Assembly: GCA_964509945.1 (NCBI GenBank)
Contig: CAZDZM010000001.1
Span: 1-62,280, forward strand
Reading direction: 5' to 3'
From: an uncultured Candidatus Bathyarchaeia archaeon
Lineage (GTDB): Archaea > Thermoproteota > Bathyarchaeia > Bathyarchaeales > Bathycorpusculaceae
DNA: 62,280 nt
Shown here: piece by piece, positions 13,080 through 53,566 of the stretch
How positions within the stretch are numbered: the stretch's first letter is position 1
How the letters are laid out: each line of letters opens with the position of its first letter
Translations under genes and position numbers: made by a program
Notes under the pieces: model-generated
Seen by the model: only the letters and a program-made list of their open reading frames with translations
Database searches by the model: none
Told to the model about the DNA's origin: nothing

Positions 13080-13164
13080 GCGGGGGTTGCCAAGCATGGC
13101 CAAAGGCGTAGCCCTGAGGCGGCTATCCCATAGGGGTTCGTGGGTTCAAATCCCACCCCCCGCA
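13080..13164 (+). tRNA. tRNA-Leu (anticodon GAG), class II with long variable arm, no intron, CCA not encoded
   Basis: - Acceptor stem GCGGGGG/CCCCCGC with discriminator A.
- D arm GCC-AAGCATGGCCAAA-GGC.
- Anticodon stem TAGCC/GGCTA with loop CTGAGGC.
- Variable arm TCCCATAGGGGTTC.
- T arm GTGGG-TTCAAAT-CCCAC. Confidence 0.92.
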
Positions 13165-13385
13165 CTATGTCTGAACACCCCGCAATTGACGAAATTCTGA
13201 CACCGCGCGCGTTGATAGCGAACGAAAGAATAAACATAGGTAGCTTCGATTTCTTTCGCGGGGCAATTGGGAAAGAAAAGAGAGCAATCCATTTCTATAA
13301 AATCTCCTCTAACGCTTAGGGCCGAAACTAAATCGTACCTTAACACGGAACGTTGTGAGCGTTTTGCGTATGCATAGAAAGTGTT

Positions 13386-19952: not shown

Positions 19953-20978
19953 TTAAATGTATTTTCTCATGTCTTCTAACGCTGCGGACGGAACGGGCAT
20001 GTCTTTCATTGTCAGTAAACCAGCTGGCGCTCTAATAACCTTTGGAATGGAGTTAACAACCATTGCTATTGTGCCTAAGTCGCCATGAACGCAAGGCTGA
20101 ATCTTCAGGTTAATCTCTGGAACTCCCTCTATCACTATGGCATCGTATTCTTCCTCGGCACCAATGTACGCCTTGAAATCTAAAACTATGACTTCCTTAT
20201 TGCCAAGAATGCCTTTTGCCTTCTGCCTCAAACCCGCCACTTGTCCAGCTTTAACTTTTATGTCTTTGCTCTCAACTTGCTTTTCAGCTATTACCGGCTC
20301 AACAGTCTCAGTGACTATCTTGTCAAGTTTCCATGCTAAGGCCGCTGCTATCATTGCAATACCTTGTTCAAGGCCTACGTGTCCAGCAATCTCTTTATTT
20401 TCAAGTTTCTTTTTTAGCTCTTCAACCGTCAGGCCCGCACCCATTTTCTTTTGGAACTGTATTCTTCTTTTGGCTGCATTCAGGACTTTTGCTGCCCGAA
20501 TTTTCTCCACTTTCTGGCAAGGAGCTGTAAGTGTTATTACAAGGGTGTCCATGAGAAAACCAGGGTTTATACCTGTACCCAAGACTGTCGCGTCATGTTT
20601 TTTGGCTAGAGCATCAAGTTCTTCTGCAAGCTTTGGTTCAGCTAAGTAGGGGTATGAGAGTTCCTCACATGTCGAAACTACGTTTACACGATGTTTCACG
20701 ATCGAAGCTATTTGCGAATATGTGTCTTTAAGGAAGGATGATGTCGCGTGAACGGCTACGTCCGCGTTTATCTTTGCAAGCACAACGTCAACGTCATTTG
20801 AGACTTTTACACCAAGCTTTCTATCTAAGCCCAAAACGTCACCTAGATCCTTGTCAACTTTGTCTGTGGCCACATCAACTGCGCCAACTATTTCCACGCC
20901 TTCTTTCTGAAGTAAGAACTTGGCAATTGAACTGCCAACTGCGCCTACACCATATGAAACTAATTGTACTTTCTTCAT
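19953..20978 (-). CDS. DapB-N-domain NAD(P)H-dependent amine dehydrogenase family protein (2,4-diaminopentanoate dehydrogenase-like)
   Basis: KVQLVSYGVGAVGSSIAKFLL Rossmann N-terminus, and family-like length and central GINPGFLMD segment. Confidence 0.6.
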   Translation of the reverse strand: MKKVQLVSYGVGAVGSSIAKFLLQKEGVEIVGAVDVATDKVDKDLGDVLGLDRKLGVKVSNDVDVVLAKINADVAVHATSSFLKDTYSQIASIVKHRVNVVSTCEELSYPYLAEPKLAEELDALAKKHDATVLGTGINPGFLMDTLVITLTAPCQKVEKIRAAKVLNAAKRRIQFQKKMGAGLTVEELKKKLENKEIAGHVGLEQGIAMIAAALAWKLDKIVTETVEPVIAEKQVESKDIKVKAGQVAGLRQKAKGILGNKEVIVLDFKAYIGAEEEYDAIVIEGVPEINLKIQPCVHGDLGTIAMVVNSIPKVIRAPAGLLTMKDMPVPSAALEDMRKYI

Positions 20979-21088: not shown

Positions 21089-22744
21089 CTAAAGTATGTC
21101 TAAAGCGTGGGAGAGAACCTTTTCTCCTCTATACTCTGGAAGCAAAATGGGCGATTTCCGGCTGGTTTTTATGCCTGCTTCTTCGAGCAGTCTTTCATAT
21201 CTAATTACGTGCTCTAACGTTAATTTGCCCGTTTTAGCTTTTCTAGCATGTCTTGCTGCAGTAATTCCGGCTATTCTTCCAAAAACACTGTAGTCAAGTA
21301 TCGAGTTTCCCATCAACCTGTTCTTTCCGTGGGTTCCACCCGTTACTTCTCCAGCCGCGAACAACCCCATAACGGTTGTCTCCGCATTTTCGCTTATTAT
21401 TAAACCGCCATTTTGGAAGTGTAATGTTGGAAAAACTAAAACAGGGTCTTTAGTCATGTCAATGTCAAATCTCTTATATTGCCTCAGCATGGCTGGGAGC
21501 TCCTTTGCTATTGTTCCTTCGCCGTGAAGCATATCTATCAGCGGCGAATCCAGCCAAACTCCCTTCATCCCAGTAGGCGTTTCTATGTAATTTCCTCTCT
21601 CATAACATTCTCTGATTAGCGCTGCCGATTCCACGTCCCTCGGCTCTCGGGGATTAACAAACTGTTCGCCGTTCCTATTTATCGGCTGCGCTCCTAATCC
21701 CCGCACTTTCTCTGTAACCAGCAATCCTACTATCTGCTCCGGATAGGCCACGCCCGTAGGGTGATATTGTACCGCATCCATATCTCTCAACTTCGCACCC
21801 ACATGATAGGCCAGAACCACACCGTCAGCTGTAGCTCCATAGTGATTCGTAGTTGGAAATCCTTGTATGTGAAGTCTGCCAAATCCGCCAGTGGTCAGTA
21901 CTGTAGATTTCGCTCTTGCTATGTGGTATTCTTGTGTTTCCATGTTATATAAGACGGCTCCAGCAACCTGGCCGTATTCATCTGTGAGCAGTTCTATGGC
22001 GGAAGTAAACTCCAAAATCGGTATATTACGGTTTAAAATCTCGTCTTTGAGATTCCTTACTATTTCTAAGCCCGTGTAGTCCCTCGCAGAATGCATTCTT
22101 TTTCTACATGTTCCGCCACCATGTATCGTGATCATAGTGCCATCGGGTTCTCGATCATACATAACCCCCAATTCTTCATGCCATTTCATTATCATAGGGC
22201 CGTCGATCACAAGCCTTCTAGCAAGGTTTGCGTCGTTAGTGAAGTGCCCACCGCCCATGACGTCTAGGTAATGAAGTGTCGGGCTATCATTCGGTTTGTC
22301 TGCAGCTTGCACGCCTCCTTGCGACATTATAGAGTTGGAGTCGCCAAGCCTCAGCTTTTGCACGATAAGCATGTCTTCAGCCTCTGCTCCAGTGTAATTA
22401 GCCCACAAAGCCGCTGTCATTCCGGCGCCGCCACCGCCAATGATAAGGATATCAACGTCGAAATCAACCTTCGATAAGTTCACATCTTCTGGTCTTATCA
22501 GCGGGTGTGCTTCCAGCAAGTCTGCGACCTCATGCGGCATAAAATCGTCTTTATTAGGTCCAACCTTCAGAAGTCTCTTTGCTTCCTCTTTGTAATCCGG
22601 GTGAAAATTCTTCAATATTTCCTCTCTTTCTTTTAGGTTCATAAAGGGAAAGCTTTCTTTCAGTCTTTTGTCTCTAGTTTTCTCGACGACTTCTATATAT
22701 TCCCGCATGTACTCGGGATATCCTCGTATAATCTTGTTGCTCAT
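21089..22744 (-). CDS. fumarate reductase / succinate dehydrogenase / aspartate oxidase-type flavoprotein with ~95-aa N-terminal extension
   Basis: DILIIGGGGAGMTAA begins only at residue ~97. Also QGGVQAA, MDAVQYHPTG, RGLGAQPINRNGEQF, HFQNGGL, AAGEVTGGTHGKNRLMGNSILD. Confidence 0.8.
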   Translation of the reverse strand: MSNKIIRGYPEYMREYIEVVEKTRDKRLKESFPFMNLKEREEILKNFHPDYKEEAKRLLKVGPNKDDFMPHEVADLLEAHPLIRPEDVNLSKVDFDVDILIIGGGGAGMTAALWANYTGAEAEDMLIVQKLRLGDSNSIMSQGGVQAADKPNDSPTLHYLDVMGGGHFTNDANLARRLVIDGPMIMKWHEELGVMYDREPDGTMITIHGGGTCRKRMHSARDYTGLEIVRNLKDEILNRNIPILEFTSAIELLTDEYGQVAGAVLYNMETQEYHIARAKSTVLTTGGFGRLHIQGFPTTNHYGATADGVVLAYHVGAKLRDMDAVQYHPTGVAYPEQIVGLLVTEKVRGLGAQPINRNGEQFVNPREPRDVESAALIRECYERGNYIETPTGMKGVWLDSPLIDMLHGEGTIAKELPAMLRQYKRFDIDMTKDPVLVFPTLHFQNGGLIISENAETTVMGLFAAGEVTGGTHGKNRLMGNSILDYSVFGRIAGITAARHARKAKTGKLTLEHVIRYERLLEEAGIKTSRKSPILLPEYRGEKVLSHALDIL

Positions 22745-23439
22745 TCCGGCTCAATCTCCCTCTTTGCGTATGTTTCTTTAAGGCTGGCACTGTCTGCTTG
22801 CATAAGCTTCTGGATTTCCTCATCGAATTTTCCGGATTCCACTTCTTTTATTCGGTCTTCAACGTGTTTTGCTCTGGGCATGACGTATCTGCCAAAGATT
22901 CTTCGCGCAAGCAAAGCTATATTGTAGGGCACAATTTCTGTCGGGCATCTCATTGCGCATAATCCACATGCAATGCAATCGAACGAGAGGCGCGCGGCTT
23001 CCTCAAAGTCTCCCCTCAAGGCTGCTTGAACATAATCCATAACTTCCAAATCCTGAGGACAGGCTTTAGTGCAAGTGTTGCAGCAAACGCACTTTGCGAT
23101 TTCCGGGTAATATTCCAGAAACACGTTTACTGAGGGGCCTACTTCGTTTAAGTTGTAAAGGGGTTTTTCTGCTGGGGTGAAGGGGATCTGTGCTATGTAT
23201 ATTCCGTCTTCAACAGTTTTCTGGCAAGCTAAAGCCGCTCTTAGCTTGTAGTCGTTTCTTAAGCGATAGACTGTAGCACATGCTCCACAGAAGCCTCCTC
23301 GACAGCCACTTCCTCTCATAAAGCGATATCCAGCATATTCCATGGCCTTCGTTATTGTCAAACCAGCAGGCACCTTGTACTCTCGCCCCATTATGTAAAT
23401 TCGAACTTTTTCTTTGTTCTCCGGTTTGTTTTCAACCAT
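22741..23439 (-). CDS. FrdB/SdhB-like iron-sulfur subunit (2Fe-2S plus two 4Fe-4S-type motifs)
   Basis: CRGGFCGACA...C, CVCCNTCTKACP, CIACGLCAMRCP. There is a 4-nt overlap with the flavoprotein gene. Confidence 0.8.
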   Translation of the reverse strand: MVENKPENKEKVRIYIMGREYKVPAGLTITKAMEYAGYRFMRGSGCRGGFCGACATVYRLRNDYKLRAALACQKTVEDGIYIAQIPFTPAEKPLYNLNEVGPSVNVFLEYYPEIAKCVCCNTCTKACPQDLEVMDYVQAALRGDFEEAARLSFDCIACGLCAMRCPTEIVPYNIALLARRIFGRYVMPRAKHVEDRIKEVESGKFDEEIQKLMQADSASLKETYAKREIEPE

Positions 23440-23490
23440 TATTCACACCTGCTTGCGTAACAATGATGACCAATAGCGTTTTTCCCCATT

Positions 23491-24417
23491 CTAATAAAGG
23501 TTTTTAGCTTCAAGAATGGGTTTAGGATCAACATAGTGAAGATCAAACTCAACACCATAAAATTGTCTCTCCAACCCTAAGGCTATCGCCATGAGCTGAG
23601 TATAATACATTATCGGGATCTCATCTAGATCTCGGTAAAGTCCTCTTGCCTCTTTCTGCTTAGCGTCCAAATTGAAGGTACAGAGAGGACAGCATGTTGC
23701 TACGATTTCTGCGCCATTTCTTAAAGCGTAGATCAGGTTGTCATAGGTGAGCTTTGTAACAATATCTTTTCTGTTAATCGTGTGGTAACTGCCACAGCAT
23801 TGTGTTTTGTTTGGGTTGTTTATGACTTCGGCGCCTAGAACCTCGAGTAGGTCTTCAAAAACAGTGGGATTTTCAGCGTCGTCTATGCCTATTTCTCTTG
23901 GCCTCAAAACAAGACAACCGTAGTAGGGTGCTACTTTTAACCCTTTTAGAGGTTTCTTTACCTCTCTTGCTATTTTTCCATATCCAACAACGTCCCTCAA
24001 TAATTCCAGAAAGTCGAGAACAGCTATTCCACCTCTGTAGCCTTCTTTTGCTCCGCCCGCAAATTCCTTTTCCCTATCAAAGAAGGTGTTGATTTTTTTC
24101 AGTTTCTCTTCGTCTTTAACAAACATGTTTGCCTCTTTAAGCGTGTGATAGCACATGGAGCAGAATGTTGCGACACGGTTTTCGTTCTTCACTATTCCGT
24201 TTTCATTAATCTCTTGCACCTGTATGAGGTTTCTTATTGGGGCAAGATGCCGCATCAAATCGTCGTTGGCAAGAGAGGGGAAAACACCGCAGCAGTACCA
24301 TTTAGGCAGTTCAATCAGTTCCACTCCTAGCTTTTCAGCGACCGCAATGCCTGAAACCGAATAGTTTCGGGCAGTCGTCTGCACCGCGCAGCCCGGATAG
24401 TAGGGCATCTTAATCAT
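23491..24417 (-). CDS. hdrB: heterodisulfide reductase subunit B-like protein (two CCG domains)
   Basis: YYPGC...WYCCG...CSMC and YYGC...TQCCGS...CCPLC. The start is set at ATG 24417, preceded by AGGTG and 11 nt after the hdrC stop. The longer track ORF overlaps hdrC. Confidence 0.85.
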   Translation of the reverse strand: MIKMPYYPGCAVQTTARNYSVSGIAVAEKLGVELIELPKWYCCGVFPSLANDDLMRHLAPIRNLIQVQEINENGIVKNENRVATFCSMCYHTLKEANMFVKDEEKLKKINTFFDREKEFAGGAKEGYRGGIAVLDFLELLRDVVGYGKIAREVKKPLKGLKVAPYYGCLVLRPREIGIDDAENPTVFEDLLEVLGAEVINNPNKTQCCGSYHTINRKDIVTKLTYDNLIYALRNGAEIVATCCPLCTFNLDAKQKEARGLYRDLDEIPIMYYTQLMAIALGLERQFYGVEFDLHYVDPKPILEAKNLY

Positions 24418-24428
24418 TCTTTGCACCT

Positions 24429-24803
24429 TTAAGCTGTTGTTTTGCGGAAATTGCTTACTAACAGTATTGGCGGAATTTTTCTCAGCTCTTGTTTCGGGAT
24501 ATTGTTGACTACAATCTGATCCTGTTCTCTTCGCAGTTTTATCTGTCTTAGAGCCTCCATAATTTTCGTGATGTTGATCTTCCTTGGACATCTTGCGTGA
24601 CACGTGAAGCACGTACTGCAAATCCAAAAAGTGTTTGACTCAAAAATCTCTTCAACAGCTCCCGTTTGCACTAGTCTTATGACCTGCGTTGGCGATAGGT
24701 CCATTGCATACCTCACGGGGCAGGAACCGCTGCATAAACCGCATTGATAGCACGAAAGAACGTTTTCTCCGCTTATGTCTTGAACCTTGTCTGCCAAATT
24801 CAT
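24429..24803 (-). CDS. hdrC: heterodisulfide reductase subunit C-like 4Fe-4S protein
   Basis: CYQCGLCSGSCP and CSTCFTCHARCP motifs, 124 aa. Confidence 0.85.
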   Translation of the reverse strand: MNLADKVQDISGENVLSCYQCGLCSGSCPVRYAMDLSPTQVIRLVQTGAVEEIFESNTFWICSTCFTCHARCPRKINITKIMEALRQIKLRREQDQIVVNNIPKQELRKIPPILLVSNFRKTTA

Positions 24804-25018
24804 TAAAGCCCACTCTAGCGTCTAGCAAAACTGCGTGTATTGGCATTTTAAACTTATCGCTAAGAGAATCATGTTCTTATTGTTGGTTCTGAAACAAAAA
24901 TCAATCATATTTGGTCTGCATTTCTTTTATTGAATTTCAATAGAAAAGTTATAATAACGCGGATCAGAACAACTAACTCTACTACTTTGACTTGACCACA
25001 TCTATGGAGATGTGAACT

Positions 25019-27385
25019 GTGGAAGCTGTCCCTAGAATCGGTGTATACATTTGTCACTGTGGAGGTAATATAAGTGACACTGTCCTCGTGGAAAAGGTCA
25101 AAGACGCCATGTCGAAGTTGGAAAACGTAAAGATAGTTGAGACAGTAGATTACCTCTGCAGTACTCAGGGACAGAGTAAAATTAGAAGTGGAATTAAGGA
25201 TAAGGGTGTTAACCGTGTTGTTGTTGCTTCTTGTTCTCCGCAGTTGCATCTGGAAACTTTTAGGAGAGCTGTTTCTGAGGCTGGTTTGAACCCTTATCTG
25301 CTTGAAATGGTGAACATTCGTGAACAGTGCAGCTGGGTTCATGAAGACGTCGAACAAGCAACTGCTAAAGCCATAGATGTCATCCGTGGAGCAGTAGAAC
25401 GAGTAAAACAGCTAGAGGAACTGTATCCGGTCAAAACTGTCATAAAAAAAGATGTCTTGGTCATTGGCGGTGGCATAGCAGGAATCCAGACAGCTCTTGA
25501 GACAGCAAATAAAGGCTATAAGGTCTACTTGGCGGAGCGCAGCCCTTGCATAGGCGGGCATATGGCTCAACTCAGCGAAACCTTTCCAACTCTCGACTGC
25601 TCTTACTGCATTCTTGCGCCCAGAATGGTTAGTGCTGGCCAGCATCCGAACATAAAAATTGTGACCATGGCCGAACCTGTTTCTCTGAAAGGAGTCCCTG
25701 GGGACTACAGGGTTAAGCTAAGAGTCAGACCACGGTACGTAGATGTTGACAAATGCACTGGTTGTGGCGCGTGTGCTAAAGTCTGCCCTGTTGATGTTCC
25801 GGATGAGTTTAACATGGGCTTGACTCGGCGTAAGGCCATGTATATCCCCTTCCCTCAAGGCGTACCCCGAGCATTTGTATTGGACGTTGACAATTGCTTG
25901 GGTTTTGCACCCCTTGCATGTGGAAAATGCGTTAAAGTGTGTGCGCGGAAAGCCATAAACTACGATATGAAAACAGAGGAAGTTGAAGTCCAGGCCGGCG
26001 CCATAATTGTTGCAACCGGATATGAACAAATGAGCCCCAGAGATTTTGGCGAATACTCTTATGGGCAACACCCGGACATCTTAACCAACCTACAATTTGA
26101 ACGCGTAATGCACTTGGGATTCGGCAAGCCCTCTGATGGAAAACTCCCTAAGAAAGTTGCCTTTATTCTATGCGTTGGAAGTCGGGCTCTCCAAGAAAGA
26201 GCAAAAGAATACTGCTGCAAAATAGGTTGCATGGTTGCAATAAAGCAAGCCATAATGCTTAAGAAGGCTTTGCCAGACGTTGAGCCTTGGGTCTTCTATC
26301 AGGACATAAGAGCAGACGGCAAAGGATACGAGGAATTCTACGCGAGGGCAAGAGAGCAAGATGTGCATTTCGTAAGAGGCTTAGCGGCAAAAGTTCTGCC
26401 GACGAAAGACGGATTAATCGTCAAGGCTGAAGATACCATCGCTGGAAAGCCTGTTGAAGAAAAGTTTGACATAGTAGTCCTTAGCTTAGGCATAACTCCC
26501 AATCCTGACATGGCTGAACTCTCAAAGAATCTTGGGTTGTCTACAGGGCCTGACGGTTTCTTTATTGAGAGGCATTACAAGCTTGACCCTGTAGACAGCG
26601 CCAAGGAGGGAATCTTTGTTTGCGGATGCTCGTTAGGACCGAAAGATATCCGCGAATCCGTCGAACAAAGCATGGCTGCCGCTTCCAGGGCGACAACCTT
26701 CATTGGACAAGGTGAACGAGCAACTTTGCCTGAAGTACCCGTCGTTGATATGGAAAAATGTAATCTTTGCGGCAACTGCGTTGCAGTCTGTCCAGCTGAC
26801 GCAATAACGATAGTTGATTCCAGCATACAGGTGACTCCAGTTGCCTGCATAAACTGCGGGGCGTGCGTGCCGGTCTGTCCAAAGGGCGCCATAGACCAGA
26901 ACAATTTCAAAGAGAAACAGTTACTGGAGCAGATCCGCGGCGTAAGCATTGGCGAAACAAAGGAGCCGAAAATAATCGCTTTCGTTGAGAGAAAAACGGC
27001 ATATTCATCTTTAGACTTAGCTGGAACAAGAAGGTTAAGCTACATGGCTAACATCAGGCCCATTACTGTACCAAGCTGCATGCGCATCGGCATAAAGCAC
27101 CTGCTAGCTGCTTTTGCTTATGGTGCTGACGGAGTAGTCTTGGTTGAAGGAGAAGACAGTCCATTCGCAGGAGAAAAACTTCTTCAACACGTTGCCAAAC
27201 TCAAAAGAGATTTACAGCAATACAGCGTCTCTCCCATGAGACTACAGTCCATGACCACGACCATACCGCAATACGAAAAAACTGTAAAACTCTTTGACAC
27301 AGTTAATATCAGAATTTCACGTCTCGGCAAGATACCTTTAGAAGAACGTAACAAAATTCGGGAAAAGATAGAAGGTCTCATCTGA
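25019..27385 (+). CDS. hdrA: HdrA-like FAD/FeS protein fused to a Cys-depleted MvhD/FlpD-like C-terminal domain
   Basis: IGVYICHCGGNI, VLVIGGGIAGIQTA, ferredoxin inserts (CTGCGACAKVCP, CNLCGNCVAVCP, CINCGACVPVCP). The C-terminal IAFVERKTAYSSLD...VLVEGED aligns with the MvhD domain but lacks its Cys ligands. Confidence 0.85.
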   Translation: MEAVPRIGVYICHCGGNISDTVLVEKVKDAMSKLENVKIVETVDYLCSTQGQSKIRSGIKDKGVNRVVVASCSPQLHLETFRRAVSEAGLNPYLLEMVNIREQCSWVHEDVEQATAKAIDVIRGAVERVKQLEELYPVKTVIKKDVLVIGGGIAGIQTALETANKGYKVYLAERSPCIGGHMAQLSETFPTLDCSYCILAPRMVSAGQHPNIKIVTMAEPVSLKGVPGDYRVKLRVRPRYVDVDKCTGCGACAKVCPVDVPDEFNMGLTRRKAMYIPFPQGVPRAFVLDVDNCLGFAPLACGKCVKVCARKAINYDMKTEEVEVQAGAIIVATGYEQMSPRDFGEYSYGQHPDILTNLQFERVMHLGFGKPSDGKLPKKVAFILCVGSRALQERAKEYCCKIGCMVAIKQAIMLKKALPDVEPWVFYQDIRADGKGYEEFYARAREQDVHFVRGLAAKVLPTKDGLIVKAEDTIAGKPVEEKFDIVVLSLGITPNPDMAELSKNLGLSTGPDGFFIERHYKLDPVDSAKEGIFVCGCSLGPKDIRESVEQSMAAASRATTFIGQGERATLPEVPVVDMEKCNLCGNCVAVCPADAITIVDSSIQVTPVACINCGACVPVCPKGAIDQNNFKEKQLLEQIRGVSIGETKEPKIIAFVERKTAYSSLDLAGTRRLSYMANIRPITVPSCMRIGIKHLLAAFAYGADGVVLVEGEDSPFAGEKLLQHVAKLKRDLQQYSVSPMRLQSMTTTIPQYEKTVKLFDTVNIRISRLGKIPLEERNKIREKIEGLI

Positions 27386-27489
27386 TCTAGCGTGTATAGC
27401 AAAAAACTTTCGAAAGCTGTCCAAAGCCTCAAAGTTTATGCTTATGCGATAGCAAACTTCTCTTATTCGGACGTTTACATTTGTAAACC

Positions 27490-27497
27490 TTTATATT
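27490..27497 (+). promoter_or_regulatory. TATA-like box TTTATATT in the 147-nt gap before the HdrC/GltD fusion gene
   Basis: AT-rich element 36-43 nt upstream of the GTG at 27533. Confidence 0.3.
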
Positions 27498-27532
27498 CGG
27501 GGTAAACCCCAAGACTAGCGAGGGCCAAAAAC

Positions 27533-28969
27533 GTGAGGTCCACTGAGATCACGTTCTCTAGGAAAGAAGTTAAAAGCCTCTTGGATGTCGAAAGACTTGC
27601 ACACTGCTTCGAATGCGGAATTTGCACGGCCAGTTGCTCCATGGTTGAATTGATTAGGAAGGACTATAACCCAAGAGCGCTTCTAGAGGGAATTTTCTTG
27701 AGTCCAGAGGAGATTTTGACTTCATGCGAAATTTGGCTCTGTGCTTGGTGCTATAGCTGCCAGAGACATTGTCCTCAAGCCCTAAGAATACCTGAAATAC
27801 TTCTTTCAATGCGGGCGATTGCAGCGAAACACGAGTTCACGAAAGCTATTGACGATGCCCTCCAAAAAATTGTGGAAAACGTACCTTTACCACTTGTAAC
27901 GATATTTACTTGTTTCCATCCTGAACGCGCAGGTGTAGATAGAAATAACATCCTAAAAAAAATGGAACAGAAATATGTGGGGTTCTTGAAGAAGGCAAAG
28001 GAGAGTAGAAATGTAAAGGATTCTGGAAAAAAAGTTGCGGTGATAGGCTCTGGTCCCGCTGGGCTTGCTGTTGCCCGTGAAATAGTCCTTAAAGGGCACG
28101 AAGTTACAGTTTTTGAGGCTCTTGCAGAAGCTGGTGGCATGTTAAGAAAATGCATTCCGGAACAGCGCCTTCCAAAGGCAATAGTGGCAAAAGAGGTTCA
28201 ACTCTTGCAGAGTTTGGGGGTAGAAATAGAAACAGGTGTAACTGTTGGGAAGGGCCTAAGTTTTGAGGATTTATGGGAGAAAGGTTATCAAGCAATTTTT
28301 GTGGGCGTAGGCGCACAGAAGAGCCAAAGACTGAAAATTGAAGGCGAAGACTTGGAGGGCGTGGTCGATGCTCTTGACTTTTTGTGGCGTGTTAATATTG
28401 GCCATGAGATAGAAGTTGGGAAAAAAGTTGCGGTTATTGGCGGTGGAAATGTCGCCGTCGATGCTGCAAGAACTGCACTGCAATGTGGGGCATACGAAGT
28501 AACCATGTGGTATCGCAGGTCGCATGAGGAGATGCCCGCTAATCCGTGGGAAGTCAAAGCGGCAGAGACTGAAGGTGTTAAAATCGAATTCTTGGTTGCA
28601 CCCAGAAAGTTTCTGGGAGAAAATGGGAGGGTCTATGCAATTGAACTTGTCCGGATGCAATTGGGTGAGCCCGACGAGTCAGGAAAAAGAAAGCCCATAC
28701 CAATAGAGGGTTCGGAATTTATTCAAAAAACAGATATGGTGATTCTTGCCATTGGCGAAGTTCCAGGCGTCGAGTTCTTGCCAAAGGAAATCGAGTTAAA
28801 TGAAGATGGTACAATTTGGGTAAACCCAATAACTATGGAAACCAGCCTTCAAGGGGTTTTTGCGGGCGGGGACGCCGTGACAGGACCGGCAACGGTTATT
28901 GAGGCAATCTGTGCTGGAAAACGCGCTGCGACATCAATTGAAAACTACTTGAAACCTTTAGGAGGATAG
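27533..28969 (+). CDS. fusion of HdrC-like 4Fe-4S domain with GltD/SudA/NfnB-type NAD(P)H:FAD oxidoreductase
   Basis: N-terminus CFECGICTASC and CAWCYSCQRHCP. Then KKVAVIGSGPAGLAVA, AGGML, KKVAVIGGGNVAVDAA, GVFAGGDAVTGPATV. Confidence 0.85.
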   Translation: MRSTEITFSRKEVKSLLDVERLAHCFECGICTASCSMVELIRKDYNPRALLEGIFLSPEEILTSCEIWLCAWCYSCQRHCPQALRIPEILLSMRAIAAKHEFTKAIDDALQKIVENVPLPLVTIFTCFHPERAGVDRNNILKKMEQKYVGFLKKAKESRNVKDSGKKVAVIGSGPAGLAVAREIVLKGHEVTVFEALAEAGGMLRKCIPEQRLPKAIVAKEVQLLQSLGVEIETGVTVGKGLSFEDLWEKGYQAIFVGVGAQKSQRLKIEGEDLEGVVDALDFLWRVNIGHEIEVGKKVAVIGGGNVAVDAARTALQCGAYEVTMWYRRSHEEMPANPWEVKAAETEGVKIEFLVAPRKFLGENGRVYAIELVRMQLGEPDESGKRKPIPIEGSEFIQKTDMVILAIGEVPGVEFLPKEIELNEDGTIWVNPITMETSLQGVFAGGDAVTGPATVIEAICAGKRAATSIENYLKPLGG

Positions 28970-28970
28970 C

Positions 28971-31409
28971 ATGATGGTCGAGAATAAAGAGTTAGAATCC
29001 AAAGGCAGTGAAGAAATCCGCATTGGCGTTTATGTTTGCCACTGTGGCTTGAATATCGCTGGTTCTATTGACTGTGAAGAAGTTGCGAAATTCGCTGCTG
29101 CCTTGCCTCAGGTTGTTCTAGCCAAAGACAACCGCTACACATGTTCAGACCAAGGACAAGAAATCATAAAAAACGATATCAAGGAACGTAAACTTAACCG
29201 CGTAGTGGTTGCCTCATGTTCGCCTCGTCTTCACGAGTCCACGTTCCGAAAGGCATGTGAAGAGGCTGGATTGAACAAATATCTTTTTGAAATGGCTAAC
29301 ATACGTGAGCAGTGCAGTTGGGTTCATTTACATGATCAAAAGGCTGCCACGGAAAAGGCTAAAGACCTTGTCAAAATGGCAGTGGCCAAAGTTGCATTAC
29401 TTCAACCTGCTGAAGAAATTGAAGTGCCTGTAACCCGTAAAGCCTTAGTCATAGGTGGCGGAGTTGCTGGGGTTCAAGCCGCTCTAGACCTTGCCGACAC
29501 AGGCCATAAGGTGTATCTGGTTGAGAAAGAACCTAGCATTGGCGGGATGATGGCAAGAATAGACAAGACCTTCCCAACAATGGACTGCTCAATCTGTATT
29601 CTTGCACCTAAAATGTCCGACGCTGGGCATCATCACAACATTGAGTTGATGACCAACAGTGAAGTTACTGAAGTTAAAGGTTATATCGGCAACTTCTGTG
29701 TTAAGGTGCTGAAGAAACCGCGTTACGTTACTAAAGATTGTTCGGCTTGTGGCGAGTGTCCCAAAGTCTGTCCAATAATTGCCCCAAACGAGTTTGATGT
29801 TGGTTTAGTGTCAAGACATGCTATTTATACACCTTTTGCACAAGCAGTCCCATCAACATACATAATCGACATGAACATCTGCCTCAACAAAGACGGCGTA
29901 ATAGTTTGCGACAAATGCATCAAGACATGCGAAAGAGAAGCTGTAAACTTTGAAATGAAACCTGAAACGGTTGAACTTGACGTGGGTACAATAATCGTAG
30001 CAACAGGCGCAGACGTATTTGACCCGTCTACTTTGCCAAACTATGGATACGGCAAATACTCAAACGTTCTTACTTCACTTGAATTTGAAAGACTAATCAA
30101 TGCCGGTGGACCTTCTGGTGGGCGCCTCATTAGACCTAGCGACATGCAAATTCCAAAGCGTGTGGCGTTTGTTCAATGTGTTGGTTCCCGCTCTGACAAA
30201 AGCGGGAGACTGTACTGTAGCAATGTCTGTTGCATGAACACAATAAAAGATAGCCTGTTAATCAAGGAACATTGGCCGGAAACCGAAATTTACGTTTTCT
30301 ATGTTGACATACGTGCCTATGGAAAGGGCTTCGAGGACCTCTATAAACGCGCGCGAAAAGAAGGCGTCATCTTCATTCGCGGGCTTCCGTCTGAGATATT
30401 TGAGGATAGAAAAACTCGTAATTTGTGGCTTTTCGGAGAAAACACTCTGAAAAGAGAACTGTATAACGTAAATGCTGATATGGTAATTCTCTCAATAGGC
30501 TTGGAACCAAGGAAAGATAGCGAAATCATACAACGCCTGTTAACGCTTTCACGGACACAAGACGGGTTCTTCATGGAGGCGCATCCGAAACTTAGACCTG
30601 TGGACGCAGCTACCGGAGGAATATTTTTTGCTGGCTGCGCTGAGGGACCTAAAGACATTAAGGACAGTGTGACACAAGCAAGTGCAGCGGCAGCGCGTGC
30701 AGGTATTTTAATGGCAAAAGGAAACGTGACAGTTGAAGCTATCACTCCGATTTATTTTGCTGACAAGTGCAAGTTGTGTGGGCTCTGTGTTAAAGTTTGT
30801 CCATACAATGCTATAACGCTCAACAAAGAATTGAAACGAGTTGAAGTTATAGAGGCTGCGTGTGGCGGATGCGGAACATGTTCAGCTGAGTGTCCGTTTG
30901 GTGCGTTAACTCAAAGCCACTTTACAGACGAGCAAATCATAGCTCAGATAGACGCTGTTACAGAGCACGAACCGGAAAAGAAAATTGTTGCTTTCTGTTG
31001 CAACTGGTGCGCTTACGCTGGTGCAGACTTTGCAGGGATTAGTAGAATGCAGTATCCACCAAAAGTGCGCATAATCAGAACTATGTGCTCTGGGCGTGTG
31101 GCTCCCAAATTCGTTCAAAGAGCATTTGCAAGAGGGGCTGCAACTGTTATAGTGGCGGGTTGCCATCCGGGAGACTGCCATTATATCAATGCAAACTATC
31201 ATACGCAGAAGCGCATGGAGCAAATGTGGAAAAAAATGAAACAGAGTGGACTGGACGATGAGAGGTTGCAATTGTTGTGGGCTTCGGCAGCTGAAGGCGA
31301 AAGATTTGCTTCAAAAATCCGTGAAATGGAGGCACTAATGGAAAAAGTTACTTCAGAAGATATTGAAAAATCGAAGAAGGTTTTTGAGAAGGCTTTGGAG
31401 GCAAGTTAG
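28971..31409 (+). CDS. hdrA: HdrA-like FAD/FeS protein fused to an intact MvhD/FlpD domain
   Basis: IGVYVCHCGLNI, ALVIGGGVAGVQAA, CSACGECPKVCP, CKLCGLCVKVCP, CGGCGTCSAECP. C-terminal IVAFCCNWCAYAGAD...RTMCSGRV...VAGCHPGDCHY. Confidence 0.88.
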   Translation: MMVENKELESKGSEEIRIGVYVCHCGLNIAGSIDCEEVAKFAAALPQVVLAKDNRYTCSDQGQEIIKNDIKERKLNRVVVASCSPRLHESTFRKACEEAGLNKYLFEMANIREQCSWVHLHDQKAATEKAKDLVKMAVAKVALLQPAEEIEVPVTRKALVIGGGVAGVQAALDLADTGHKVYLVEKEPSIGGMMARIDKTFPTMDCSICILAPKMSDAGHHHNIELMTNSEVTEVKGYIGNFCVKVLKKPRYVTKDCSACGECPKVCPIIAPNEFDVGLVSRHAIYTPFAQAVPSTYIIDMNICLNKDGVIVCDKCIKTCEREAVNFEMKPETVELDVGTIIVATGADVFDPSTLPNYGYGKYSNVLTSLEFERLINAGGPSGGRLIRPSDMQIPKRVAFVQCVGSRSDKSGRLYCSNVCCMNTIKDSLLIKEHWPETEIYVFYVDIRAYGKGFEDLYKRARKEGVIFIRGLPSEIFEDRKTRNLWLFGENTLKRELYNVNADMVILSIGLEPRKDSEIIQRLLTLSRTQDGFFMEAHPKLRPVDAATGGIFFAGCAEGPKDIKDSVTQASAAAARAGILMAKGNVTVEAITPIYFADKCKLCGLCVKVCPYNAITLNKELKRVEVIEAACGGCGTCSAECPFGALTQSHFTDEQIIAQIDAVTEHEPEKKIVAFCCNWCAYAGADFAGISRMQYPPKVRIIRTMCSGRVAPKFVQRAFARGAATVIVAGCHPGDCHYINANYHTQKRMEQMWKKMKQSGLDDERLQLLWASAAEGERFASKIREMEALMEKVTSEDIEKSKKVFEKALEAS

Positions 31410-31411
31410 CC

Positions 31412-31696
31412 ATGCCTGAAAGAATTAAACATCCACCACTTGACAGCAAAAAGGTGAAACCGCCAAATGCAGAAATTCACATAATTAAAGACCAGTGCAA
31501 AGGCTGCGGTTTCTGCATTCAATTCTGTCCCAAGAAAGTTCTGGAAGAATCCCAAGAAATAAACGCGCGAGGAGTTCCCCCTCCAAAAGTTGTGAATGAA
31601 GGCGGATGTGTAATATGCAGTTTTTGCACTGCAGTTTGTCCAGATTTCGCAATTTTTGTTGTTGAAAAGTCGCTTGAGGAGGATGTTAAGGCATGA
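31412..31696 (+). CDS. korD: 2-oxoacid:ferredoxin oxidoreductase delta subunit (2x4Fe-4S ferredoxin)
   Basis: CKGCGFCIQFCP and CVICSFCTAVCP. It starts 2 nt after the hdrA stop. Confidence 0.8.
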   Translation: MPERIKHPPLDSKKVKPPNAEIHIIKDQCKGCGFCIQFCPKKVLEESQEINARGVPPPKVVNEGGCVICSFCTAVCPDFAIFVVEKSLEEDVKA

Positions 31697-32844
31697 GTGG
31701 AAGACGTGCGTTAATTAGTGGCGCCCACTTTATGAGCGGTGACATCGCGTGTGCAGAAGGCGCATTATGTGCTGGCTGCAGGTTTTTTGCCGGTTACCCA
31801 ATTACGCCAGCCACAGAAATCGCTGAGCACCTCTCTGAGAGAATGCCTGATTTCGGGGGGATTTACATTCAGATGGAAGATGAAATCGCATCCATAGCGG
31901 CTGTAATAGGCGCTTCCTATGCTGGTCTGAAGGCCATGACCGCCACTTCTGGACCAGGTTTCAGTCTGATGCAAGAGAATATAGGATTGGCCGTTATGAC
32001 GGAAACTCCATGCGTAATTGTAGACGTTATGCGTGGCGGACCAAGTACAGGGCAGCCGACATTGCCAGGGCAACAGGATGTGATGCAAGTCAAATGGGGC
32101 TCTCATGGAGACTATAGCATTATAGCCTTAGCGCCTTCTTCGGTGCAAGAAATGTTTGACTTAGCGATTGAAGCGTTCAACTTATCTGAAACTTACAGAG
32201 TTCCAGCTTTTGTTATGGCAGATGAGATAGTTGCACATATGTGGGAAAAAGTCGTTATACCCCATGCTTCCAAGATAAAGATAGTTAGCCGCGAAAAACC
32301 GCACATTGCGCCCGATAAATACAAACCATTTGCACCAGACGGTAGTTTAATTCCTCCGATGGCTTGTTTTGGAGAAGGGTACCGTTTTCACGCCACAGGC
32401 TTAACGCATGATGAGCGTGGATATCCAAAGACCCAGGACTCAGAAGTTCAATCTAGGCTTGTCAGGAGACTATGTGAAAAGATAAGCAAAAATGCAGATA
32501 GAATTATTAAAGTTGAGGGAATAATGCTTGGAGACGCGGACGTCGTGGTTGTTGCGTATGGAATAGTTGCGAGAGCTGCTTTGAGTGCGGTGAGAAAAGC
32601 AAGGGAATTTGGAATAAAGGCTGGGCTTTTACGGTTAGTTACGCTTTGGCCTTTCGCTGAGAAGCATGTTGCGGAGGTAGCGAAGCAAGCAAAGTCAATA
32701 GTTGTTCCAGAGATGAACTGCGGGCAGATTGTTAGAGAAGTTGAAAGAGCAGCTAAAGAAACGCCTGTGGCTTTTCTTTCGAAATTAGGGGAAGATCCTC
32801 ATACCCCGCAGGAAATTCTTGAGTTGATGAGGAGGAATACTTAA
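31693..32844 (+). CDS. korA: 2-oxoacid (2-oxoglutarate-type):ferredoxin oxidoreductase alpha subunit
   Basis: FFAGYPITPATEI, MEDEIASI, TATSGPGFSLMQE. ATGA overlap with korD. Confidence 0.85.
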   Translation: MSGRRALISGAHFMSGDIACAEGALCAGCRFFAGYPITPATEIAEHLSERMPDFGGIYIQMEDEIASIAAVIGASYAGLKAMTATSGPGFSLMQENIGLAVMTETPCVIVDVMRGGPSTGQPTLPGQQDVMQVKWGSHGDYSIIALAPSSVQEMFDLAIEAFNLSETYRVPAFVMADEIVAHMWEKVVIPHASKIKIVSREKPHIAPDKYKPFAPDGSLIPPMACFGEGYRFHATGLTHDERGYPKTQDSEVQSRLVRRLCEKISKNADRIIKVEGIMLGDADVVVVAYGIVARAALSAVRKAREFGIKAGLLRLVTLWPFAEKHVAEVAKQAKSIVVPEMNCGQIVREVERAAKETPVAFLSKLGEDPHTPQEILELMRRNT

Positions 32845-33683
32845 TGGATCGGGAGCTGGTGCACCCATTTTCAAAGTATCTGCGATCGGCAATGATGCCT
32901 CATATTTGGTGTTCAGGATGCGGCAATGGCATTGTACTTAATTGTTTCATTAATGCTTTAGATGACTTGCAGATAGATTTGGACAAGTTGGTAGTTGTTT
33001 CGGGTATTGGATGTATTGGGCGCATAGCTGGATATACAAACGCTGATTCCTTTCACACTACTCATGGACGTGCAATCGCCTTCTCAACTGGAGCGAAACT
33101 CGCGAATCCAGAATTGGAAGTTGTGGTCATAAGCGGCGACGGCGATCTTTTTGCAATAGGTGGAAACCATTTCATGCATGCAGCACGGAGAAACATCGGA
33201 ATCAAAGTAATTTGCGCAAACAACTTCAACTATGGAATGACTGGTGGGCAACAAGGTCCAACAACGCCGCTTGAATCATTGACAACCACGACTCCATATG
33301 GAAACATTGAACATCCGTTTAACTTGATTCATTTGGCAGCAGCGTGCGGAGCAACTTATGTTGCCAGATGGACAACTTTGCATGTACGAAGATTAACTCA
33401 ATCCATTAAGAGAGTGTTGCAAAAAGAGGGTTTCTGCTTCATCGAGGTAGTTTCACCTTGCCCAGAAATCTTCGGTCGACGTAACAAAATGCGAACCGGA
33501 CTGGAAATGATGGAATGGTTTAGGAGAGCCTCGGTGGTGGAGAATTTCTCCGATCCCTCCAAAGCAGAAATCTCCTCGGAAAAAATAGTTGTGGGCGAAT
33601 TTGTAAACAAGGAGAAAGTTAGCTACGAAAGGTTACTTCATGAAAAAATAGCTCAAATTAACGAGAAGAGAGTGGAGTGGTGA
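32844..33683 (+). CDS. korB: 2-oxoacid:ferredoxin oxidoreductase beta (TPP-binding) subunit
   Basis: WCSGCGNG, SGIGC, ISGDGDLFAIGGNH, NNFNYGMTGGQ. TAATG overlap with korA. Confidence 0.85.
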   Translation: MDRELVHPFSKYLRSAMMPHIWCSGCGNGIVLNCFINALDDLQIDLDKLVVVSGIGCIGRIAGYTNADSFHTTHGRAIAFSTGAKLANPELEVVVISGDGDLFAIGGNHFMHAARRNIGIKVICANNFNYGMTGGQQGPTTPLESLTTTTPYGNIEHPFNLIHLAAACGATYVARWTTLHVRRLTQSIKRVLQKEGFCFIEVVSPCPEIFGRRNKMRTGLEMMEWFRRASVVENFSDPSKAEISSEKIVVGEFVNKEKVSYERLLHEKIAQINEKRVEW

Positions 33684-33688
33684 TTGAC

Positions 33689-34234
33689 ATGCGAACAGAG
33701 ATTAGGTTTGCTGGTTTTGGCGGACAAGGGGTAATCAAGTCAGGAATTATAACCGCTGCTGCAGCATGTGTACACAGCGCCAAAAATGCGGTTCAAACAC
33801 AGTCTTATGGGCCAGAATCACGGGGTGGGGCGTGCAAGTCTGAGGTTGTCATCTCTGATGAAAAGATAGATTTTCCAAAGGTTGTCGAGCCTGACATATT
33901 AGTGTTGATGTCACAGCACGCCTATAATGAATATGCAGAAAGCGTGAAACCCGGCGGAACAGTGATTCTGGATCCTGACATGATTCCCCATGAGAAGAAC
34001 TTGAAAGATGCTAAAATTTTCCGAGTACCTGCCACAAAAATTGCTGAAGAGCTTGGAAGAAAAATAGTTGCAAACATTGTCATGCTGGGCGCTTTCACAG
34101 CAATTACGCGTTTATTGGATCAAGATGCTATCAAAGAATCAGTCAAAGCAAATATACCTAAAGGCACTAAAGAGTTAAATTTAGAAGCGTTTAAGAAAGG
34201 CTATGATTTTGGGAAAACCCTTTTGAAAAGCTAA
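33689..34234 (+). CDS. korG: 2-oxoacid:ferredoxin oxidoreductase gamma subunit
   Basis: IRFAGFGGQGV, QSYGPESRGG. ATG preceded by GGAG/GGTGA; the alternative GTG at 33677 overlaps korB. Confidence 0.8.
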   Translation: MRTEIRFAGFGGQGVIKSGIITAAAACVHSAKNAVQTQSYGPESRGGACKSEVVISDEKIDFPKVVEPDILVLMSQHAYNEYAESVKPGGTVILDPDMIPHEKNLKDAKIFRVPATKIAEELGRKIVANIVMLGAFTAITRLLDQDAIKESVKANIPKGTKELNLEAFKKGYDFGKTLLKS

Positions 34235-39004: not shown

Positions 39005-39598
39005 GTGAGGTCGACGTCTGAAATTGGATTGAGATCCAGAATGCTTGTTAAGGACATCATGAGTAGTCCAGTAGTGACAATCGAAGAAGATGCGCCGACA
39101 AATCACGTTGCCAAACTTATGGATGAAAATGATTTGGGCTCAATAATAGTCACCAACAAAGAAGGAAAACCTTTGGGCATAATAACAGAAAGAGACCTTG
39201 TTGTGAGGGTTCTGGCTAAGAACGTTAAACCTGATTCTGTAGAAGCAAAGAAAATCATGACCTCTCCATTGGTCACGATAGAGCCAGAAGCAACAATAAG
39301 TGAAGCAGCCAGAAGAATGAGCAGGCTAAATCTGAGAAGATTAGGAGTAGTATATAAAGGCGAACTGGTTGGCTTAATCTCCAGTAAAGACATTTTAGGG
39401 GTCACGCCTGAACTAATAGAAATCATACAAGAAAAAGCACGCATAGAAAGCGCAAATAAGGCTGAAGAAATAGAGGAAGAAGAAGCGCCTCTCACTGGAC
39501 ACTGCGACCGTTGCAGAGGGTGGTCAGAAAATCTAAAAGAGATCAATGGAGAATACTTATGCGAAGACTGCCGAGTTGAACTGGAAAGCGAGGAATAA
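39005..39598 (+). CDS. CBS-pair protein with C-terminal zinc ribbon
   Basis: Two CBS motifs (VKDIMSSPVVTI..., KKIMTSPLVTI...). Acidic linker. CDRCRGW...LCEDC. Probable start is the Met at 39041. Confidence 0.8.
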   Translation: MRSTSEIGLRSRMLVKDIMSSPVVTIEEDAPTNHVAKLMDENDLGSIIVTNKEGKPLGIITERDLVVRVLAKNVKPDSVEAKKIMTSPLVTIEPEATISEAARRMSRLNLRRLGVVYKGELVGLISSKDILGVTPELIEIIQEKARIESANKAEEIEEEEAPLTGHCDRCRGWSENLKEINGEYLCEDCRVELESEE

Positions 39599-39609
39599 GA
39601 GGCGGTCAA

Positions 39610-40395: not shown

Positions 40396-40496
40396 GGGAG
40401 CCATGATTGAGTCGAGAAACTTTTAGGCGGACACTGAAGGATAAGGGGCCACTCTCATTAAAGGCTCCACCTTCAAAGAAACGCGGAGGCGAAATT

Positions 40497-47845: not shown

Positions 47846-47846
47846 T

Positions 47847-52056: not shown

Positions 52057-52060
52057 GTGA

Positions 52061-53562: not shown

Positions 53563-53566
53563 GTCT

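Follow-up and report, generated by a model that had tools for sequence, protein, structure and literature searches.

Positions 21,089 to 34,234 of the window analysed here (62,280 nucleotides of contig CAZDZM010000001.1, from an uncultured Candidatus Bathyarchaeia archaeon) hold an 11-gene locus that combines proteins of the heterodisulfide reductase (Hdr) families, a fumarate reductase (Frd)-like flavoprotein and a KOR-class 2-oxoacid:ferredoxin oxidoreductase (KOR) encoded by korDABG. We tentatively read this locus as two electron-transfer modules that share the one Hdr-linked KOR. Module 1 (HdrC, HdrB, an iron-sulfur (FeS) subunit and the flavoprotein, together with HdrA1) is, judged by its sequences, a split thiol:fumarate reductase (TfrAB)-like enzyme wired to HdrA; module 2 comprises an HdrC-domain/NfnB(GltD)-like protein, hereafter the fusion protein, and HdrA2. 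The two may form, with a probability that we place a little below even, a modular flavin-based electron-bifurcating fumarate reductase that would use NADPH as donor and send low-potential electrons to KOR or the ferredoxin pool. A six-frame map of open reading frames with translations reproduced all 11 genes, coordinates, overlaps and motifs given in a preliminary description of this DNA, and Pfam and NCBIfam domain calls bore out its parts list.

The flavoprotein of module 1 (21089-22744, minus strand; 551 residues) is Frd/TfrA-like. Its residues 98-482 match Pfam FAD_binding_2 (228 bits), and its best NCBIfam model is TfrA (318 bits versus a cut-off of 718, over profile positions 6-416 of 546); no Pfam match to Succ_DH_flav_C, the C-terminal helical domain of Sdh/Frd proteins, was found in it. 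Alignment with Escherichia coli FrdA shows that the equivalents of H232, T244/E245, R287, H355 and R390 are retained and that the position of H44, the site of covalent FAD attachment, is occupied by Asn. Mutants of FrdA H44 favour fumarate reduction over succinate oxidation; the replacement of this histidine by Asn thus predicts a reductase that is poor at oxidizing succinate. Homologues of the flavoprotein, publicly annotated merely as 'FAD-binding protein' or 'FAD-dependent oxidoreductase', form a family that is 67-85% identical, N-extension and C-terminal tail included, across Bathyarchaeota, Asgard and other metagenome-assembled genomes (MAGs). Searched by itself, the 95-residue N-terminal extension turned up 370 clusters (50% identity level), located almost without exception at protein N-termini. 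Residues 1-97 (FHPDYK...KxGPNKGD...LEAHP) and 507-551 equal the catalytic core in conservation and have no Pfam match. The extension and the short C-terminal tail may stand in for the absent C-terminal domain, or may form a docking surface. An analogy with Qmo-AprAB was dropped, as no Apr model is among the best 25 of the flavoprotein's 40 NCBIfam matches.

The N-extension was used to fetch metagenome loci, giving 80 contigs on which neighbouring genes were counted by tblastn. Where at least 2.6 kb of upstream sequence was available, the FeS gene lies directly upstream of the flavoprotein gene in 45/45 loci, and hdrB and hdrC lie upstream in 40/45. An hdrA gene is present in 37 of the 48 loci with room for it and in 22 of the 25 with at least 8 kb upstream; these 25 also include korAB (11 loci), fumarase (6) and mvhGA (3). 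Some flavoprotein clusters contain class-I fumarase alpha and beta genes and malic enzyme, and a complete Bathyarchaeota chromosome (L097) carries a single operon in the order malic enzyme-fumarase-FeS-flavoprotein. This synteny supports fumarate as the predicted substrate of module 1 and argues against an aspartate oxidase, a possibility raised in the preliminary description. A flavoprotein of the L-aspartate oxidase type, or another FAD_binding_2 enzyme for which the Frd analogy misleads, would be in keeping with the absent C-terminal domain, the novel N-extension and nadB models that score nearly level with Frd models (250 versus 262-318 bits, all under their cut-offs). We nevertheless hold this highly improbable: the nadB equivalog TIGR00551 is not passed (250 versus 453), there is no nadA or nadC nearby, a [2Fe-2S]/[4Fe-4S] partner is adjacent in every one of the 45 loci, and the gene is co-operonic with fumarase and malic enzyme in relatives.

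The remaining minus-strand genes encode the parts expected of a Tfr-like electron path. The FeS gene (22741-23439; 232 residues) overlaps the flavoprotein gene by 4 nt, and its product has a Fer2_4/Fer2 domain at residues 10-85 followed by a 4Fe-4S dicluster domain (Fer4_9/Fer4_7, residues 115-169; Pfam), two CxxCxxCxxxCP motifs standing after the N-terminal [2Fe-2S]-type domain. The HdrB-like protein (23491-24417; 308 residues counted from M71) has two CCG domains with the motifs WYCCG and TQCCGS. It matches solved HdrB (7bkb_B) over its full length with 132 bits and retains 10/10 of the CCG-motif cysteines; its equivalog score is 155 against a cut-off of 345, and it also matches the MFR subunit SdhE (E 1.5e-41, score 143 versus a cut-off of 500). 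The hdrB open reading frame extends to 24627 and overlaps hdrC; M71 (24417), which sits 12 nt past the hdrC stop codon, is probably its true start. The HdrC-like protein (24429-24803, minus strand) is short at 124 residues, matches Fer4_8/HdrC, and has eight cysteines in two [4Fe-4S] motifs (TIGR03290, 83 bits versus a cut-off of 160). Together, the three small proteins cover successive stretches of the TfrB profile, FeS residues 19-85 aligning with positions 19-85, the HdrC-like protein with 127-221 and the HdrB-like protein with 256-484, at 27-33 bits each against a cut-off of 385. Thus, the module 1 operon appears to encode a Tfr-like enzyme whose B subunit is split into three.

This piecewise match to TfrB, the presence in HdrB of every CCG-motif cysteine that serves as a ligand of the substrate-site clusters in known HdrB structures, and the assumption of an unknown disulfide for HdrB in analyses of non-methanogenic archaea (PMC9723716) would also suit a true thiol:fumarate reductase. 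Such an enzyme would oxidize a soluble thiol pair at HdrB, HdrA complexes would re-reduce the disulfide, and fumarate would be coupled to bifurcation indirectly only. We consider this unlikely. A single hdrBC pair would have to serve both roles, and genes for cofactor synthesis were not seen nearby. In addition, hdrC-hdrB are co-operonic with the FeS and flavoprotein genes and follow directly after hdrA on the same strand in 9 loci, an arrangement more readily explained by one complex than by a pair of enzymes that exchange a diffusible cofactor.

Gene order in relatives ties this arm to HdrA and KOR. The order korDABG-hdrA-hdrC-hdrB-FeS-flavoprotein on one strand occurs in 9 metagenome loci, and a divergent arrangement, korGBAD-hdrA1 facing hdrC-hdrB-FeS-flavoprotein, occurs in 4. 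The order kor-hdrA/mvhD-mvhG-mvhA-hdrC-hdrB-FeS-flavoprotein is found in an Asgard genome (L098, with korABG-hdrA/mvhD-mvhG-mvhA-hycI-hdrC-hdrB-FeS-flavoprotein on one strand) and on four unassigned metagenome contigs. These 9 one-strand, 4 divergent and 5 mvhGA loci lend comparative support to the functional link among KOR, HdrA-MvhD, HdrBC and the Frd-like enzyme that the preliminary description had proposed.

Both HdrA proteins are encoded on the plus strand and end in an FlpD (MvhD)-type domain. HdrA1 (25019-27385; 788 residues, GTG start at 25019) is separated from hdrC by a 215-bp divergent spacer (24804-25018) with 34% GC, versus 43.6% in the whole window; HdrA2 (28971-31409) has 812 residues. 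Solved HdrA (5odc_A) is matched over the full length by HdrA1 with 628 bits and by HdrA2 with 837 bits, and both proteins have cysteine at every position where the aligned HdrA homologues invariably do. The NCBIfam HdrA2 model (NF040770, cut-off 1100) is passed by HdrA2 (1262) and failed by HdrA1 (855). The two differ further in the MvhD-type domain. HdrA2 matches MvhD (5odc_D) with 147 bits and has cysteine at 6/6 of the MvhD cysteine columns, and HdrA1, whose FlpD match reaches merely 72 bits in Pfam, has 0/6 and reads V/E/T/S/G/S. The cysteine-free domain is common to HdrA1 orthologues and to a second, downstream HdrA type. A rule that every donor-less HdrA beside the flavoprotein module has a cysteine-free MvhD domain was rejected: the HdrAs of the single-strand kor clusters, like those of mvhGA neighbours, keep 5/6 of these cysteines. 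Cysteine loss is thus lineage-specific and not general to Frd-linked HdrAs. Heterodimers of HdrA paralogues have been proposed for ANME clusters (PMC9012536), and by analogy HdrA1 and HdrA2 might form an asymmetric heterodimer at this locus. In two related loci (L060, 13436-15922; L098, 2623-5016) the HdrA-MvhD genes are interrupted or uncalled by gene finders; the break in L060 falls near residue 199, at the DCSxC site, and suggests an in-frame UGA. Some HdrAs have selenocysteine at this site.

The fusion protein of module 2 (27533-28969, plus strand; 478 residues, GTG start) joins an HdrC-like domain to a Pyr_redox_2/GltD-type domain. Solved HdrC (5odc_C) is matched by residues 19-109 (E 2.5e-14), a segment for which no NfnB/GltD chain gave a match; residues 75-474 match the large subunit of NfnI (5jca_L, 290 bits), which binds NADPH and carries the bifurcating flavin of Nfn, and also related chains including StnC. 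Eight cysteines in two CxxCxxCxxxC motifs and the motifs GGGNVA and YRRS can be read from the sequence. An ordinary NfnB of normal length was rejected as an identification, since the N-terminal domain matches HdrC and not NfnB/GltD chains. The earlier designation of the protein as an HdrC/GltD fusion is therefore correct, and 'HdrC-domain/NfnB-like' is more precise in view of the HdrC and 5jca_L matches. The HdrC-like domain would plausibly dock on HdrA at the usual HdrC position. The cluster has no gene for an NfnA-like small subunit (FNR-like, [2Fe-2S]). Homologues at 65-79% identity make up more than 100 clusters from Bathyarchaeia, and homologues of both the fusion protein and the flavoprotein carry Candidatus Bathyarchaeia or Bathycorpusculaceae MAG names. 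A contig scan with the fusion alignment keyed on the generic GltD motif GVFAGGD; its hits were for the most part GltD genes of bacteria with no relation to the locus, and no more than four loci from Bathyarchaeia were among them.

The kor genes follow hdrA2 on the same strand. A 2-nt gap separates hdrA2 from korD (delta; 31412-31696; two [4Fe-4S] motifs, Pfam Fer4 families), which shares an ATGA overlap with korA (alpha; 31693-32844; POR_N, PFOR_II); korA shares a TAATG overlap with korB (beta; 32844-33683; TPP_enzyme_C), and korG (gamma; 33677-34234; Pfam POR) completes the set. With all four Pfam architectures present, the enzyme belongs to the four-subunit KOR class. KorA passes NF006412 (581, cut-off 411) and KorG passes NF006323 (248, cut-off 235), and models specific for 2-oxoglutarate are best or second best yet under cut-off for KorA (396/579), KorB (269/364) and KorD (OGOR_delta, 62/125).

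The locus occupies a variable site between a 2,4-diaminopentanoate dehydrogenase-like (Ord-like) gene and the gene for ribosomal protein S3Ae, and three variants were found there. Variant A, in five Bathyarchaeia loci (L011, L091, L093, L094 and L095), consists of fusion-hdrA2-korDABG only; its HdrA2 is 86-87% and its kor proteins are 72-91% identical to those of the window. Variant B (L096, a Bathyarchaeon) has flavoprotein-FeS-hdrB-hdrC divergent from an HdrA1 orthologue (82% identical) that is followed directly by korDABG, with no GltD-like gene and no second HdrA at the site. Variant C, the arrangement in the window, is the union of A and B, and its full order was found only in the window lineage and in L181, whose fusion protein is 79% identical to that of the window; the union thus persists in one sister lineage at least. 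In all three variants the kor genes belong to a single orthologue group (68-91% identity), distinct from the second KOR-class paralogue of the window (46501-48986; 44-53% identity). The co-occurrence of the 11 genes envisaged earlier therefore holds for sub-sets, which recur on dozens of independent contigs, and fails for a single conserved 11-gene unit, as the single-module variants demonstrate. The Ord-like gene (19953-20978, minus strand; 349 bits versus a cut-off of 400 for 2,4-diaminopentanoate dehydrogenase) always borders the variable Hdr/kor site, and some relatives add 5-oxoprolinase-type genes (LamB_YcsF, CT_A_B, CT_C_D) beside it.

Comparable combinations occur in more distant genomes. 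In a Marinimicrobia locus that adjoins citrate synthase and malate dehydrogenase genes, korDABG is followed in order by genes for an NfnB-like protein with fused ferredoxin and MvhD domains, for HdrC and HdrB joined in one polypeptide, and for HdrA-MvhD. A Bacillota MAG locus (L076) begins with malic enzyme, hdrCBA, a second hdrCB and an HdrL-like HdrA/NfnB fusion, and continues with MvhD, two FeS proteins and the same N-extended flavoprotein. The association of an NAD(P)H module with HdrA, HdrBC and a Frd-like arm, as suggested in the preliminary description, has thus recurred independently in Bacillota, though not as a fixed gene set.

Conserved promoter-like elements divide the locus into three predicted transcription units. 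In the divergent spacer, a TATA-like block upstream of hdrC (CATTTTAAACTTATCG, 24844-24859, minus strand) is the predicted promoter of hdrC-hdrB-FeS-flavoprotein, and is the best-conserved block in 15 aligned spacers that otherwise differ. A second TATA-like block (AAAGTTATAATAACG, 24945-24959, plus strand), located about 60 nt before the hdrA1 GTG at 25019, is conserved among closer relatives. The predicted regulated kor promoter lies on the plus strand within the 147 bp that separate hdrA1 from the fusion gene, where CTTTACATTTGTAAACCTTTATAT (27473-27496) contains a perfect palindrome, TTTAC-N4-GTAAA, abutting an archaeal TATA box, TTTATAT (27474-27496 for the two together), that ends 37 nt ahead of the fusion GTG. 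This 23-nt element is present as a single copy in the window and is invariant in 11/11 aligned loci with dissimilar flanks. In variants A and C it precedes the fusion gene. In the single-strand clusters it comes directly before korD, as it does in variant B, where it lies between hdrA1 and korD. The exact palindrome TTTACRTTTGTAAAC occurs beside TTTATAT once per locus, always shortly before the gene with which the kor operon begins, in the window and in L011, L012, L013, L091-L095, L103, L106, L107, L110, L111, L125, L126, L128, L133 and L181; it is likely a regulator binding site. With the element in this position, the fusion gene and hdrA2 would belong to the kor transcription unit, so that the three predicted units are hdrC-hdrB-FeS-flavoprotein, hdrA1 alone and fusion-hdrA2-korDABG. 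Plus-strand co-transcription, part of the original proposal, is thus predicted from the conserved 23-nt element for fusion-hdrA2-korDABG, and hdrA1 is probably transcribed separately. The archaeal-type palindrome and TATA element of L013 (9031-9045) stands on a contig labelled 'uncultured Anaerolineales bacterium' (CAYGAW010000012.1); the fusion protein encoded there is 53% identical to that of the window, and the contig is possibly mis-binned archaeal DNA.

In the proposed mechanism, module 1 would reduce fumarate to succinate, and fumarate would fill the high-potential acceptor role held by the heterodisulfide in methanogen HdrABC. Module 2, which is predicted to share with korDABG one conserved promoter under operator control, would link NADP(H) to the HdrA flavin. 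The mid-potential donor would be NADPH here and, in other lineages, either H2, entering through MvhAG, or some further donor. Donor electron pairs would be split at the HdrA FAD, one electron running downhill through HdrC, HdrB, FeS and FAD to fumarate and the other uphill to ferredoxin or KorD, and the low-potential electrons could drive the conversion of succinyl-CoA and CO2 to 2-oxoglutarate or feed the ferredoxin pool. The net chemistry would be that of Tfr plus Mvh-Hdr of Methanothermobacter, merged into Hdr-type complexes. Domain content, cofactor-binding residues, synteny and the conserved promoter elements are observed; from them we infer fumarate as the substrate, the reaction direction, bifurcation, physical assembly and the role of KOR as low-potential electron consumer. 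The relevant potentials are +33 mV for fumarate and -320 mV for NAD(P)H (PMC5861303) and about -500 mV for ferredoxin (PMC11176372). Two rounds of bifurcation per fumarate would yield two low-potential electrons, which is the number that KOR would need to carboxylate the succinyl-CoA made from the resulting succinate. The earlier proposal of KOR as a second electron input is accordingly disfavoured, as thermodynamics and stoichiometry would put ferredoxin and KOR on the low-potential output side. A stronger version, in which KOR, HdrA(-MvhD), HdrCB and the FeS/flavoprotein pair form one supercomplex and bifurcation at HdrA, powered by exergonic fumarate reduction, passes electrons straight into KorD for the carboxylation of succinyl-CoA to 2-oxoglutarate without free ferredoxin, seems doubtful to us; if true, it would be a self-powering reductive branch of the tricarboxylic acid cycle, driven by NADPH here and by H2 (MvhAG) in Mvh-bearing loci.

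Several observations weigh against a joint bifurcating fumarate reductase. All flavoprotein and TfrB-type models score far under their curated cut-offs, and the 2-oxoglutarate-specific models of KOR likewise stay below cut-off. A flavoprotein structure predicted with AlphaFold2 from 15 aligned sequences has a mean predicted local distance difference test score (pLDDT) of 63.7, too low for placing the N-extension. HdrA1, with its cysteine-free MvhD-like domain, lacks the cysteines of the MvhD [2Fe-2S] entry site; the annotated parts of the window showed no genes for succinyl-CoA synthetase (sucCD); and the amino-acid-fermentation genes of the window could mean an oxidative KOR in a peptide or amino-acid fermenter. 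The modules occur apart at the same site in relatives, a GltD-like gene is present in 0/25 of the flavoprotein loci with at least 8 kb upstream, and the predicted separate promoters permit independent expression. From the separation of the modules and the 0/25 count it follows that the NADPH module is no obligatory partner of the fumarate reductase.

These last observations, namely single-module variants between the Ord-like gene and S3Ae, the lack of GltD-like genes in the well-flanked flavoprotein loci and three separate conserved promoter blocks, favour an account in which two independent systems have become neighbours at a variable site by lineage-specific juxtaposition, with no joint complex. 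In one, HdrA2 and the NfnB-like protein would connect KOR with NADP(H), for instance in 2-oxoacid:NADP+ electron transfer or ferredoxin/NADPH balancing, and the other would be an unrelated HdrA1-HdrBC-Frd-like enzyme; pairs of korDABG with a GltD-like gene without Hdr do occur in bacteria (L042, L051). This account, which we rate as somewhat unlikely, has to contend with the fact that either module alone is tied to the same kor orthologue group, with the conservation of the combined order at 79% protein identity, and with the Bacillota locus, which independently joins an NfnB-type domain, HdrA, MvhD, HdrBC and the same flavoprotein/FeS pair.

The metabolic setting bears on the direction of the reaction. 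In the regions 46501-48986 (minus strand), 51508-54469 and 57717-59624 (both plus strand), the window carries two further 2-oxoacid:ferredoxin oxidoreductase sets, one of the KOR class (46501-48986) that has no delta gene and one of the POR class, accompanied by an aldehyde:ferredoxin oxidoreductase, aminotransferases and a 2-hydroxyacid dehydrogenase; it also has a glutamine synthetase. The extra 2-oxoacid oxidoreductases, the aldehyde:ferredoxin oxidoreductase, the aminotransferases and the 2-hydroxyacid dehydrogenase constitute a predicted amino-acid fermentation neighbourhood. In such a setting KOR could oxidize amino-acid-derived 2-oxoglutarate and the flavoprotein succinate, with HdrA confurcating the electrons onto NADP+ (or H+ in Mvh loci) and completing a route from 2-oxoglutarate through malate to pyruvate. 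The malic enzyme and fumarase genes of related clusters would fit this route, and a similar one has been proposed for Culexarchaeia (PMC9723716). However, succinate (+33 mV) and ferredoxin (-500 mV) would average about -235 mV, which is too positive for the reduction of NADP+ or protons save at extreme product ratios. This thermodynamic obstacle and the missing covalent-FAD histidine, whose loss abolishes succinate oxidation in FrdA, disfavour the oxidative direction, which we judge quite improbable. As stated in the preliminary description, no hydrogenase or formate dehydrogenase was found, within the annotated parts of the window.

The GC content across the cluster is ordinary; archaeal genes for S3Ae, seryl-tRNA synthetase and Alba lie next to it; and the ENA assemblies ERZ781360 and ERZ781361 contain the same contig. 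Rfam and ARAGORN identified a single tRNA in the window, tRNA-Leu(GAG) at 13080-13165. Three successive plus-strand genes at 39005-41315 encode proteins of 197, 261 and 302 residues that consist of CBS domains only, and a 715-residue protein (1947-4094, plus strand) has only faint matches to MG4 and CarboxypepD_reg.

Hdr genes without methanogen cofactors occur in many uncultured anaerobes, including Bathyarchaeia, Asgard archaea, Chloroflexota, Bacillota and Marinimicrobia. The acceptor of HdrBC in such anaerobes is a long-standing question, for which this locus and its relatives offer a candidate, fumarate reached via a split Tfr-like arm; the locus also links Hdr with central carbon metabolism at the 2-oxoglutarate step. 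If correct, the proposal would extend flavin-based electron bifurcation to a new acceptor and to new donor modules and explain the supply of low-potential electrons without hydrogenase or formate dehydrogenase, and it would provide a compact gene set with a conserved promoter/operator for studies of expression and regulation. In the searchable full-text literature, to which subscription journals do not belong, no description was found of the association of Kor, HdrA, HdrCB, FeS and flavoprotein, of the split Tfr-like operon, of the N-extended flavoprotein family or of the kor operator, and the phrase 'bifurcating fumarate reductase' has no match.

All the building blocks are members of known families, and associations of HdrA with NfnB/GltD have been published (PMC9012536, PMC12054007). 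The TfrAB enzyme of Methanothermobacter shares with module 1 an inventory of a fumarate flavoprotein, a [2Fe-2S] domain, an HdrC/SdhB-type 2x[4Fe-4S] domain and two CCG domains, and TfrAB together with MvhADG-HdrABC has the same proposed net chemistry, in which a donor, fumarate and ferredoxin give succinate and reduced ferredoxin; KOR is the user in the reductive branch to 2-oxoglutarate of methanogens (PMC9012536). Compared with TfrAB, the present system distributes the TfrB part over three proteins and adds a ferredoxin-type dicluster; its flavoprotein is extended at the N-terminus and is missing the C-terminal domain, and the genes sit beside those for HdrA and KOR. A CCG protein (SdhE) likewise partners an Sdh/Frd flavoprotein and FeS subunit in the MFR/type E succinate:quinone reductases (SdhABE), whereas here no membrane or quinone link was seen and HdrA and HdrC are present. 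A Culexarchaeia cluster joins HdrBC, SdhA and HdrA2B2C2 (PMC9723716).

On the donor side, NfnB/GltD domains are inserted in or fused to HdrA in ANME-1 HdrA9-11, type III HdrA and HdrL of Desulfobacterium (PMC9012536, PMC12054007). These proteins share the combination of an NAD(P)H flavin module with HdrA, and the Bacillota locus encodes an HdrL-like protein; in the window, by contrast, the module is a separate protein with an HdrC-like N-terminal FeS domain and is tied to KOR. The NfnAB transhydrogenase has the same NfnB/NfnL-type FAD/NADPH subunit, but its NfnA and its Fer4_20-type N-terminal domain have no counterpart in the cluster. HdrA2B2C2 of Methanosarcina acetivorans has the same HdrA-MvhD fusion, in line with the passing of the curated HdrA2 model by HdrA2 of the window; there the partner is HdrB2C2 and the donor F420H2, whereas here the partner is the fusion protein, the donor is probably NADPH, and co-transcription with korDABG is predicted. 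The Fdh/Mvh-Hdr-Fmd supercomplexes (PDB 7bkb family) are alike in concept only, as a ferredoxin-consuming CO2-fixing enzyme combined with HdrABC. HdrB and HdrA of the window match the chains of those complexes, but here such an assembly is hypothetical, its consumer would be KOR and not formylmethanofuran dehydrogenase, and no polyferredoxin is present. Finally, of the features of HdrABC-MvhD, the FAD domain and [4Fe-4S]-cluster cysteines of HdrA, the two CCG motifs of HdrB and the two [4Fe-4S] motifs of HdrC are represented in this locus, and the MvhD [2Fe-2S] entry domain has its cysteines in HdrA2 and not in HdrA1.

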